This document shows, piece after piece, positions 60,137-64,000 of a stretch of DNA of 64,000 bases (position 1 is the first letter of the stretch; every line of letters begins with the position of its first letter). Source of the DNA: Escherichia phage JEP6; sequence record MT764206.1; one strand, 5' to 3'. The translations under genes and the position numbers were made by a program. The notes beneath the pieces are model-generated. The model had not been told where the DNA came from. It did no database searches and saw nothing but the letters and a program-made list of their open reading frames with translations.

Positions 60137-63100
60137 ATGGCTACTTTAAAACAAATACAATTTAAAAGAAGCAAAACTGCAGGAGCACGTCCTGCCGCTT
60201 CAGTATTAGCCGAAGGTGAATTGGCTATAAACTTAAAAGACCGTGTACTTTTTACTAAAGATGACCAGGGAAATATTATTGATTTAGGTTTTGCTAAAGG
60301 CGGTAGTATTGACGGGAATGTTATTCATACAGGCAATTATAACCAAACTGGCGATTATACTTTAAATGGCGTCTTCACTCAGACTGGTAATTTTAATTTA
60401 ACTGGTATTGCTCGAGTAACTCGTGATATTATTGCTGCTGGGCAGATTATGACTGAAGGCGGAGAACTTATTACAAAAAGTTCAGGAACGGCACACGTTC
60501 GTTTTCATGATTCCGCCGACCGTGAACGCGGTATTATTTTTTCTCCTGCTAATGACGGTTTAACTACACAAGTAGTTAACATCAGAGTTCAAGATTACAA
60601 AGCTGGTTCAGAAAGCACTTTCGCTTTTAATGGAAATGGTTTGTTTTCTTCACCAGAAGTTTTTGGGTGGAAATCTGTATCAACTCCGGTAATTTATACC
60701 AATAAAGTTATCACCAATAAAAAAGTTAAAGATGATTATGACATCTATTCGATGGCAGACAATGTTCCAATATCTGAAAGCACTACTGCTATTAATCATC
60801 TTCGTGTCATGCGTAATGCCGTTGGTTCTGCTGTTTTCCATGAAGTTAAAGATAGTGATGGAATAACTTGGTATACAGGTAACGGGTTAGATACCTATCT
60901 TTGGTCGTTTACCTGGTCCGGTGGATTGAAAGCCGGTCATTCTATTTCTGTAGGCGCCCCAGGCGGCCCCAAAGGATATTCTGAATTAGGAACGGCCTCA
61001 ATTGTTCTTGGGGATAATGACACCGGGTTAAAATGGCACCAGGACGGATATTATTTCAGCGTTAATAATGGAACAAAAACGTTTTTATTTAGTCCAAGCG
61101 AAACAACTAGTCTAAGAAAATTTGTAGCTGGATATTCTACTAACGGAAGCGATTTAACTACTCCTCCAACTGAAAATTATGCTCTTGCTACTGTAGTGAC
61201 ATACCATGATAATAACGCGTTTGGGGATGGTCAGACTCTTTTAGGATATTATCAAGGCGGTAACTATCATCATTATTTCCGCGGCAAAGGTACTACAAAC
61301 ATTAATACTCATGGCGGTTTGTTGGTTACTCCTGGTAATATTGACGTTATTGGTGGTTCTGTTAATATCGATGGTAGAAATAATGCTTCTACACTGATGT
61401 TTAGAGGTAACACAACAGGTAGTAGTTCTGTGGATAACATGACAATTTCTGTGTGGGGTAATACATTTACTAATCCTAGCGAAGGTAATCGCAAAAATGT
61501 CATGGAAATTTCCGATGCAACTAGCTGGATGAGCTATATTCAAAGACTTACTACCGGTGAAGTAGAAATGAACGTCAATGGTTCATTTGAATCATCGGGT
61601 GTTACTGCTGGAAATAGAGGAGTTCATACAACAGGCGAAATTTCATCTGGAGCGGTGAATGCGCTTCGCATTTGGAACGCAGATTATGGAGCCATTTTCC
61701 GTCGTTCAGAAAACAGTCTTCATATTATTCCGACTGCTTACGGTGAAGGCAAAAATGGCAATATCGGTCCACTTCGTCCGTTTAGCATGGCTTTAGATAC
61801 AGGTAAGGTCGTTATTCCTGATTTAGATTTAAGTTATGCTTCTTTTGCCGCAAATGGTTATATTAAATTCGGCGGTCATGGAGCTGGGGCTGGAGGTTAT
61901 GCCGTTCAATATGCTCAAGCGGCTCCTATTTTCCAGGAAATTGATGATGATGCTGTAAGCAAATATTATCCTATTGTTAAACAGAAATTCTTAAACGGTA
62001 AAGCAGTTTGGTCTTTAGGTACTGAAATTAATTCTGGTACATTCGTTATTCATCATCTGAAAGAAGATGGTTCACAAGGCCATACGTCTCGTTTTAATCA
62101 AGACGGTACTGTTAATTTCCCTGATAATGTTCAGGTTGGCGGTGGTGAAGCTACTATTGCTAGAAATGGTAATATTTTTTCTGATATTTGGAAATCGTTT
62201 ACTTCAGCAGGAGACACCACAAACATTCGCGATGCGATAGCTACTCGTGTTGCCAAAGAAGGCGATACGATGACTGGCAAATTAATCGTTAAAAGAGGCT
62301 CTGACGCTATTAACATTGCTGCCGATGAAAATGATTCTGCTTATTTACTTGGAACATCGGGTGGAGCGAATTCGTGGTACATCGGTAAAGGCGGGGCAGA
62401 TGACACTGCTTCATTTTATAATTTTAAGACTACGGCAGGAATTACTCTTAATAATGTAGGCGATATTGATTTTAATGTTAAAAATCAAGCTACTGCAGCT
62501 TCATTAAATTTTTATCGTTTATATTTAAACGGAAGACAGTGGACAGCTACCCAAGGCCACGGTTACGGAAACCAATGGCAAACAGAAGCCCCATTCTTCG
62601 TTGATTTTGGTGAATCTGTTCCAAAAGATAGTTATATGCCTATAATTAAAGGAAGAAGCCAAATCATTAATGAAGGATATGCAACAAAGGTAGATTTTGG
62701 TATTGTTCGATTAGGTGGAAATGCTGCTTGGGGAAATGCAGTAATTCGTGTTGGTTCTGCAGAAAGCGGAGATAGCCCTCATCCTAATGCAATATTTGAG
62801 TTTCAGGCTAATGGAGATTTTAAAGCTCCGGTTGGTCTTCGTGCTGGTGTTAACTTAGCTGTTGGTACTGATCCTATTTTTGGTGGACCTTCTATTGCCA
62901 TCGGTGATAATGACACTGGTTTAGTATGGGGTGGTGATGGTCGTATTAACATGCTTGCCGATGGTGTTCATATTGCGTCATGGGGGTCTCAACGTCTGGC
63001 ACATGAGGGGTTATGGGATTCATACGGGTCGTTTTGGACAGAAGTCGGTAAAGCGATTGTTTCACATGGCCATTTAGTCCAACAGGGTGATGCCTATTCT

Positions 63101-63463
63101 ACCTTTGTTCGTGATGTTTATGTCCGTTCTGATATTCGTGTTAAAAAAGACCTTGTTAAATTTGAAAATGCTTCTGAGAAGCTTTCTAAAATTAACGGTT
63201 ACACTTATATGCAGAAGCGAGGCCTAGATGAAGAAGGCAATCAGAAATGGGAACCTAACGCTGGTTTGATAGCTCAAGAAGTTCAAGCTATTTTGCCAGA
63301 ATTAGTTGAAGGTGACCCTGATGGTGAAGCTTTACTTCGTTTGAACTATAACGGTGTAATTGGTTTAAATACAGCTGCAATCAATGAGCATACTGCAGAA
63401 ATTGCAGAACTTAAATCAGAAATCGAAGAACTTAAAGCATTAGTTAAATCATTGTTAAAATAA
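60137..63463 (+). CDS. 37: Long tail fibre distal subunit gp37 (1108 aa) with C-terminal S74-like intramolecular chaperone module
   Basis: N-terminal region gp37-like; C-terminal ...[10 protein letters not shown]... followed by coiled-coil [22 protein letters not shown]. Confidence 0.92.
63128..63463 (+). other. Putative auto-cleaving C-terminal intramolecular chaperone domain of gp37 (Ser at 63128-63130)
   Basis: S-D-I-R-V-K motif resembling the S74 peptidase autocleavage site SDxRxK; about 110-aa tail. Confidence 0.55.
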
Positions 63464-63468
63464 TAAGA

Positions 63469-63482
63469 GGGGCTTCGGCCCC
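63469..63482 (+). terminator. Hairpin between genes 37 and 38 (attenuator-like)
   Basis: GGGGC-TTCG-GCCCC immediately before the gp38 RBS. Confidence 0.55.
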
Positions 63483-63494
63483 TTGGAGGTTTAT

Positions 63495-64000
63495 ATGGCA
63501 GTAGCAGGACCGTGGATAGGAACTTCTGCATTGGCACAGACTGGAGACCATTGGATGGCAGGAGCAGCCGCAAGATTAAGAATGGGAGTTCCATTTTGGA
63601 TGAGTAATATGATAGGTCGATCCGTTGAAGTAATTCATACACTTGGAGCAGACCATAACTTTAATGGTCAATGGTTCCGAGATAGATGTTTTGAGGCAGG
63701 TAGTGCACCTATAGTGTTTAATATCACAGGAAATTTGGTATCATATTCTAGAGATGTTCCTTTATTCTTCATGTATGGAGATACACCAAATGAATATGTT
63801 CAGTTGAATATTAGCGGTGGAGCTCATATGTGGGGCAGAGGTGGACAAGGTGGATGGACTCATTCTGGTGGAGATGGTAATGGTCAACAGGGTGGACATT
63901 GTATTCAAAATGACATTGGTGGTCGATTAAGAATTAATAATGGTGGAGTAATTTGTGGCGGTGGTGGCGGTGGTGGCGGTATCGCTTATCGTCCTCACTC
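63495..64000 (+). CDS. 38: gp38 tail fibre adhesin, T2-type (partial, continues beyond window)
   Basis: GGAGG RBS; ATG 63495; poly-Gly tract GGGGGGGG at the window end. Confidence 0.8.

Follow-up and report, generated by a model that had tools for sequence, protein, structure and literature searches.

A gp38-adhesin type distal tail fibre locus in Escherichia phage JEP6: an S74-type intramolecular chaperone at the end of gp37 and a polyglycine gp38

The end of gene 37 and the gene downstream of it in Escherichia phage JEP6 very probably make up the standard distal fibre tip of T4-like phages that carry a gp38 adhesin. We reached this reading from 64,000 nucleotides of sequence record MT764206.1 (hereafter the window), a stretch to which the Tequatrovirus Escherichia phage HY03 is most similar, with 96% DNA identity over 24 kb. 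What this analysis shows directly is to which domain families the proteins belong, the catalytic motif, the predicted fold, the order of the genes and how the locus differs from T4; the features concerned are collected in Table 1.

Table 1. Features of the gene 37–38 region, in positions of the window
Feature	Position	Strand	Evidence
Gene 37, long tail fibre distal subunit precursor	60137..63463	+	ORF list; 1108 aa and stop codon
Distal beta-helical tip of mature gp37, residues 915-997, ending DVYVR	62879..63127	+	Aligned to 6f45_A
Predicted autocleavage site Arg997-Ser998	63125..63130	+	Homology to S16 and fPS sites
Peptidase S74-type C-terminal intramolecular chaperone, gp37 residues 998-1108, 111 aa	63128..63460	+	Pfam PF13884, profile matches
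Catalytic dyad residues Ser998 and Lys1003 (putative)	63128-63130 and 63143-63145	+	Ser-x4-Lys spacing, alignment
C-terminal long helix of the chaperone, gp37 residues 1071-1107, heptad pattern	63347..63457	+	AlphaFold2 model
Tandem stops TAATAA	63461-63466	+	
Intergenic hairpin GAGGGGC-UUCG-GCCCCUU	63467..63484	+	RNA fold, -14.1 kcal/mol
gp38 Shine-Dalgarno GGAGG	63485-63489	+	
Gene 38, tail fibre adhesin	63495..64000 (window end)	+	168 codons visible of ~264; Pfam and PDB matches
gp38 N-terminal attachment domain, residues 1-40, with Trp7, Trp20 and Trp35	63495..63614	+	Pfam PF21721
Gly8 glycine-rich motif GGGGGGGG, gp38 residues 155-162	63957..63980	+	Translation, alignment to 6f45_D

Gene 37 follows the genes for gp34 (1289 aa), gp35 (372 aa) and gp36 (225 aa), and the translation of its 1108-aa ORF begins with an N-terminus of the T-even gp37 type. 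The best tblastn match to the whole protein was KIT03 gp37 (92.5% amino acid identity), and RB69 gp37 was 83% identical. An exact-sequence look-up of JEP6 gp37 in public assemblies found no copy, and we therefore used the HY03 gp38, 95% identical to that of JEP6 across the visible 168 residues, as a proxy for the full-length protein.

Two further elements were seen in gp37. Residues 418–561 (61388–61819) resemble the C-terminal trimerisation domain of gp34 (Pfam Gp34_trimer, 35 bits; E ~1e-12 against PDB 4uxe/5nxf); proximal and distal fibre subunits have this module in common. A GDNDTGL-x-W motif occurs twice, around residues 289 and 923 (window ~61000 and 62903), the second copy near the start of the megablast match to HY03 (window 62884); it could be a conserved recombination motif.

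What is the C-terminal module of gp37? Judged from its domain and profile matches, the segment comprising the last 111 of the 1108 residues belongs to the S74 intramolecular-chaperone (IMC) family. Pfam Peptidase_S74 (PF13884, "chaperone of endosialidase") matched residues 998–1057 with 48.5 bits (gathering score, 22 bits; E 1.1e-12), covering model positions 1–57 of 58 with position 1 falling on Ser998. When gp37 was compared with PDB sequences by phmmer, the S16 gp37 construct (6f45_A) was matched over tip and chaperone together, residues 915–1108, with an E-value of 3e-47, and the MyRF ICA domain was matched weakly. A profile built from eight diverse homologues (alignment A1) matched S16 gp37 (1e-32), the MyRF ICA domain (2e-12) and the phage tail fibre 8jov (1.6e-9), and it also reached 3gud, the neck-appendage chaperone of GA-1, as well as 8hqz, the L-shaped fibre of T5 (pb1). 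Directly upstream of the module, gp37 aligns with the beta-helix tip of S16 gp37.

The catalytic motif is intact. In S998-D-I-R-V-K1003 the lysine stands five residues after the serine within an SDxRxK context, and the pair aligns with the Ser-Lys dyads of endoNF (S911/K916), MyRF (S587/K592) and T5 (S1264/K1269). Ser998, Asp999 and Lys1003 are each conserved in at least 90% of a second homologue alignment (A2), in which the GLIAQEV core is invariant. In endoNF and T5 an arginine of the neighbouring chain, R897 and R1250 respectively, acts as a folding sensor; no equivalent of these two residues was identified in gp37. The first-pass annotation, made from the letters alone, had described a tail of about 110 residues that opens with SDIRVKK and resembles S74-type chaperones. 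Our count gives 111 residues from Ser998, whose codon at 63128–63130 places the start of SDIRVKK exactly where that annotation had begun its feature, and the kinship it proposed is borne out by a Pfam score far above the cut-off, by the profile matches and by the unbroken dyad.

The predicted fold is compatible with a coiled-coil-like end to gp37, which had likewise been noticed at first pass. In an AlphaFold2 monomer model of residues 915–1108, the IMC part (pLDDT 76–94) consists of short helices, a beta-hairpin and one long helix at 1071–1107 (residues 157–193 of the fragment; pLDDT ~89–94), and the hydrophobic residues I, L, I, L, V and L among the last 22 of gp37 are spaced 3-4-3-4-3. This helix presumably forms a trimeric coiled coil, an element that occupies the same position in solved IMC structures. 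A Foldseek search with the model returned the MyRF ICA domain first (7dc3; E 2.4e-4, probability 1.0), then S16 gp37 and then the endoNF IMC 3gw6 (probability 0.69). TM-scores to solved IMCs were only 0.3–0.5, as expected when a monomer model is compared with an intertwined trimer. The beta-helix part of the model had pLDDT values below 50 and is unreliable because the underlying alignment was shallow: a homologue search with the 124-aa C-terminus of gp37 recovered only 13 proteins, mostly short fragment calls.

Several E. coli-labelled assemblies contain 170-aa "tail fiber domain-containing protein" calls that correspond to the last 170 residues of a gp37. These calls start at an internal methionine and lie on contigs of 165–167 kb, presumably phage genomes, which suggests that gp37 was called in fragments there or that the records contain frameshifts.

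Is the module removed from JEP6 gp37? In S16 the last 113 residues of gp37 are autocleaved at DLNVS^SDRRIKK, which exposes the docking surface for gp38, and in the Yersinia fPS phages cleavage has been predicted at DVYIR^SDGRLKI (PMC7917993). The S16 site corresponds to DVYVR^SDIRVKK in JEP6, which points to Arg997-Ser998 as the bond that is cut. The T5 fibre is cleaved between Thr1263 and Ser1264, the serine departing with the chaperone. As the predicted scissile bond lies N-terminal to Ser998, mature JEP6 gp37 would be 997 residues long. In 6F45, only 72 residues of chain B are modelled out of a construct of 204, which fits the loss of the IMC stated for S16 in PMC7917993. The JEP6 tip aligns with 6f45_A from residue 23 of that chain onward, and the equivalent strand of S16 and fPS gp37 has been described as the gp38 docking site (PMC7917993); by analogy, the DVYVR end is predicted to be the docking face for gp38. 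From S16 and from T2/T6 we infer that the IMC of JEP6 gp37 is released by autoproteolysis.

One could instead read the module as a degenerate S74 relic that aids trimerisation but stays uncleaved, with gp38 a mere assembly factor as in T4. Cleavage in JEP6 is indeed an extrapolation from relatives, and several records label the homologous gp38 "distal long tail fiber assembly catalyst"; these labels, however, are names inherited from T4 (record note of NC_000866). Against a relic speak the Ser/Asp/Lys motif, which is intact and nearly invariant, an S74 domain that scores well above the Pfam cut-off across its full length, the experimentally established autocleavage of the close homologue S16 gp37 at the equivalent bond (PMC7917993), and the membership of JEP6 gp38 in the adhesin family rather than the T4 chaperone family. 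We consider a relic extremely improbable and retain the cleaved, S74-type chaperone as the preferred reading.

The family of gp38 is apparent from its visible part. The Gp38_N domain (PF21721) matched residues 1–40 over all 40 model positions (E 8.6e-20), and GP38 (PF05268) matched residues 45–164, which correspond to profile positions 1–117 of 218 (E 1.7e-47). Among PDB sequences the closest were 9v85_A, a gp38 fusion (E 1.6e-59), and S16 gp38 (6f45_D, E 1.2e-39). Trp7, Trp20, Trp35 and the Gly8 motif of JEP6 gp38 all align with S16 gp38, where the equivalent of Gly8 is glycine-rich motif (GRM) helix 3, 151-GGGGGGGG-158; further glycine-rich stretches accompany Gly8 GGGGGGGG in the JEP6 protein, whose ATG lies at 63495. 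The HY03 gp38, its closest complete relative, has 264 residues and covers the GP38 profile from position 1 to 218 of 218. In JEP6 gp38 the remaining GRMs and hypervariable segments fall past the end of the window. Gene order in HY03 is the same as in JEP6 (gene 37, then 38), and the holin gene t comes next.

Thus the gene downstream of gene 37 encodes, by these domain matches and motifs, a polyglycine adhesin of the T2/S16 type, and the glycine-rich, T2-type gp38 suspected in the first-pass annotation is recovered with both Pfam domains, its three tryptophans and Gly8 at residues 155–162. In S16, the three tryptophans of gp38 plug into hydrophobic pockets of the gp37 trimer, and ten glycine-rich PGII helices, including 151-GGGGGGGG-158, are separated by hypervariable loops that have been proposed to bind the receptor (PMC6851490). 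For fibres of this type, the published model has host range determined by the gp38 loops (PMC6851490, PMC3157838). The presence of JEP6 gp38 in the virion and its role in receptor specificity would be expected from work on T2, Ox2, K3 and S16.

The two genes are separated by a spacer of 31 nt that holds a hairpin and the Shine-Dalgarno sequence of gene 38. The same hairpin is present at the junction in HY03 and in T4; in T4 the coding sequences on either side are not homologous. Stable C(UUCG)G hairpins known from intercistronic regions of T4 are similar. We do not call it a transcription terminator because no T-run follows it on the + strand, a pattern scan gave a terminator-like signal for the - strand alone, and shuffled sequences fold with comparable energy (z = -1.3). 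A 98-aa antisense ORF across the junction (63346..63642, - strand) overlaps two well-supported genes and is probably spurious.

These elements suggest a pathway for the assembly of the JEP6 fibre tip. gp37 would be made as a 1108-aa precursor whose last 111 residues act as an S74-type IMC. The C-terminal coiled coil of the IMC would gather three gp37 chains and template the triple beta-helix that forms the fibre tip. Correct folding of the trimer would be followed by cleavage of the Arg997-Ser998 bond in each chain by the Ser998/Lys1003 dyad, and departure of the chaperone trimer would expose the flat DVYVR end of the 997-aa mature protein. One gp38 monomer could then dock on this end by means of the three tryptophans in the helical bundle at its N-terminus, stay in the virion, and contact an outer-membrane receptor of the host through the hypervariable loops between its polyglycine helices. 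Cleavage, the 3:1 stoichiometry, retention of gp38 in the virion and receptor binding by its loops are here carried over to JEP6 by homology. If the gp38 loops contact the receptor, host range would be set mainly by gp38, as we propose.

Could gp37 also contribute to specificity? Compared with HY03 gp37, the distal shaft and tip (residues 701–1000) show only 40–70% amino acid identity, against 96–100% in residues 301–450, 601–650 and the IMC (1001–1108). The variable shaft sits between a conserved N-terminal half, much of which is 96–100% identical, and an almost invariant cassette comprising the IMC and the gp38-docking region, and some contribution of gp37 is conceivable on account of this variability. 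Specificity might then be shared, with gp38 binding a protein receptor and the variable shaft (residues ~700–997) making a second contact, for example with LPS; more than one receptor is needed by several gp38-adhesin phages (PMC3157838). However, mosaicism of the gp37 shaft is common and recombination can produce such variability without receptor contact, Pfam detected no binding domain in residues 700–997, and in S16 gp38 caps the end of the fibre with its distal loops proposed as the binding site (PMC6851490). Shared specificity of this kind thus appears very unlikely to us, and we keep gp38 as the main determinant of host range. With slightly less reluctance, though still as a long shot, we mention that the variable shaft may be a second and independent specificity determinant, with the IMC, the UUCG hairpin and the gp38 N-terminal domain as a fixed recombination cassette; if so, that cassette would allow shaft and adhesin loops to be shuffled independently of each other. 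As a separate observation, gp37 is mosaic relative to HY03, the nearest genome neighbour, and the whole protein is closest to that of KIT03 (92.5%).

How widespread is this arrangement? Phage UP19 has an IMC 100% identical to the 111-aa module of JEP6, and 178 records hold sequences with at least 95% identity to it. IMC-like sequences were found in 1470 phage records, including fibres of T5-like, Klebsiella, Vibrio and cyanophages, and gp38-type adhesins in 962 records. In Pantoea phage Phynn a "chaperone of endosialidase" and a "tail fiber adhesin" are annotated side by side. An IMC-bearing gp37 followed by a gp38 adhesin is already known from T2, T6 and S16 and is very common among relatives of T4, the two modules being paired in many hundreds of sequenced phages. 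The locus holds no new biology: gp37 cleavage, kinship with S74 and a polyglycine adhesin have all been established in T2/T6 and S16. Its value lies in annotation: JEP6 can be marked as a phage of the gp38-adhesin type, so that the gp38 loops are the part to aim at when host range is predicted or engineered, and recombinant gp37 is best produced together with its own IMC.

JEP6 shares with T4 the gene order 34-35-36-37-38, a homologous gp37 N-terminus and a junction hairpin of the same CUUCGG type, and differs from it at the fibre tip. The T4 control (NC_000866) has a gp37 of 1026 residues with Collar (816–863) and Phage_fiber (924–937) domains and no S74 domain, and a gp38 of 183 residues with a weak Caudo_TAP match only. 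Conversely, Pfam found neither Collar nor Phage_fiber in JEP6 gp37, and the T4 gp37 tip structure was not among its PDB matches with E up to 1. T4 gp37 bears its own receptor-binding tip. T4 gp38, which is unrelated to the JEP6 protein, serves as an assembly chaperone and does not form part of the virion. The first-pass annotation had given gp37 lengths of 1108 residues for JEP6 and 1026 for T4, on which the ORF list and the T4 record agree, and had set JEP6 apart from T4, a contrast that stands since both the S74 module and the gp38 adhesin are absent from the T4 control.

The endosialidase of K1F (endoNF; MEROPS S74, 3GW6) and T5 pb1 also carry C-terminal self-cleaving trimerisation chaperones, the S74 kin of the JEP6 IMC. 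In all three, the two members of a Ser-Lys dyad lie five residues apart and a coiled coil, predicted in the case of JEP6, closes the chain, and in endoNF and T5 the IMC is released once the triple beta-helix has folded. In these two the matured tip is itself the enzyme or the receptor binder, whereas in JEP6 we propose that it serves as the docking site for a separate adhesin. Judged by length and predicted secondary structure, the 111-aa JEP6 IMC is without the long hairpin "tentacles" of the T5 chaperone (133 aa).

Closer to JEP6 are T2 and T6, which have the same gp37/gp38-adhesin type of fibre (Drexler et al. 1986; Riede et al. 1987; Trojet et al. 2011). In these phages gp37 is cleaved C-terminally, after which a gp38 adhesin of about 260 residues caps it and determines host range (PMC3157838); knowledge of gp37 processing in T2 goes back to Drexler et al. 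1986, as cited in PMC3157838. The C-terminus of T2 gp37 is detectably homologous to the JEP6 IMC but only ~34% identical to it; S16 and many T4-like coliphages have IMCs far more similar to that of JEP6.

The S16 fibre tip (PDB 6F45; Dunne et al. 2018) offers the most detailed likeness. S16 and JEP6 share a beta-helical gp37 tip and an S74-type IMC of ~111–113 residues, with the cleavage site, predicted in JEP6, located before SD(x)R(x)KK, and a gp38 composed of a three-tryptophan attachment domain, a beta-helix and a polyglycine sandwich that includes Gly8. Compared with S16, the JEP6 tip carries an insertion of 12 residues, and DVYVR precedes the predicted cut in JEP6 where S16 has DLNVS. 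The gp38 loop sequences of the two phages also differ, and the host is Salmonella for S16 but probably E. coli for JEP6.
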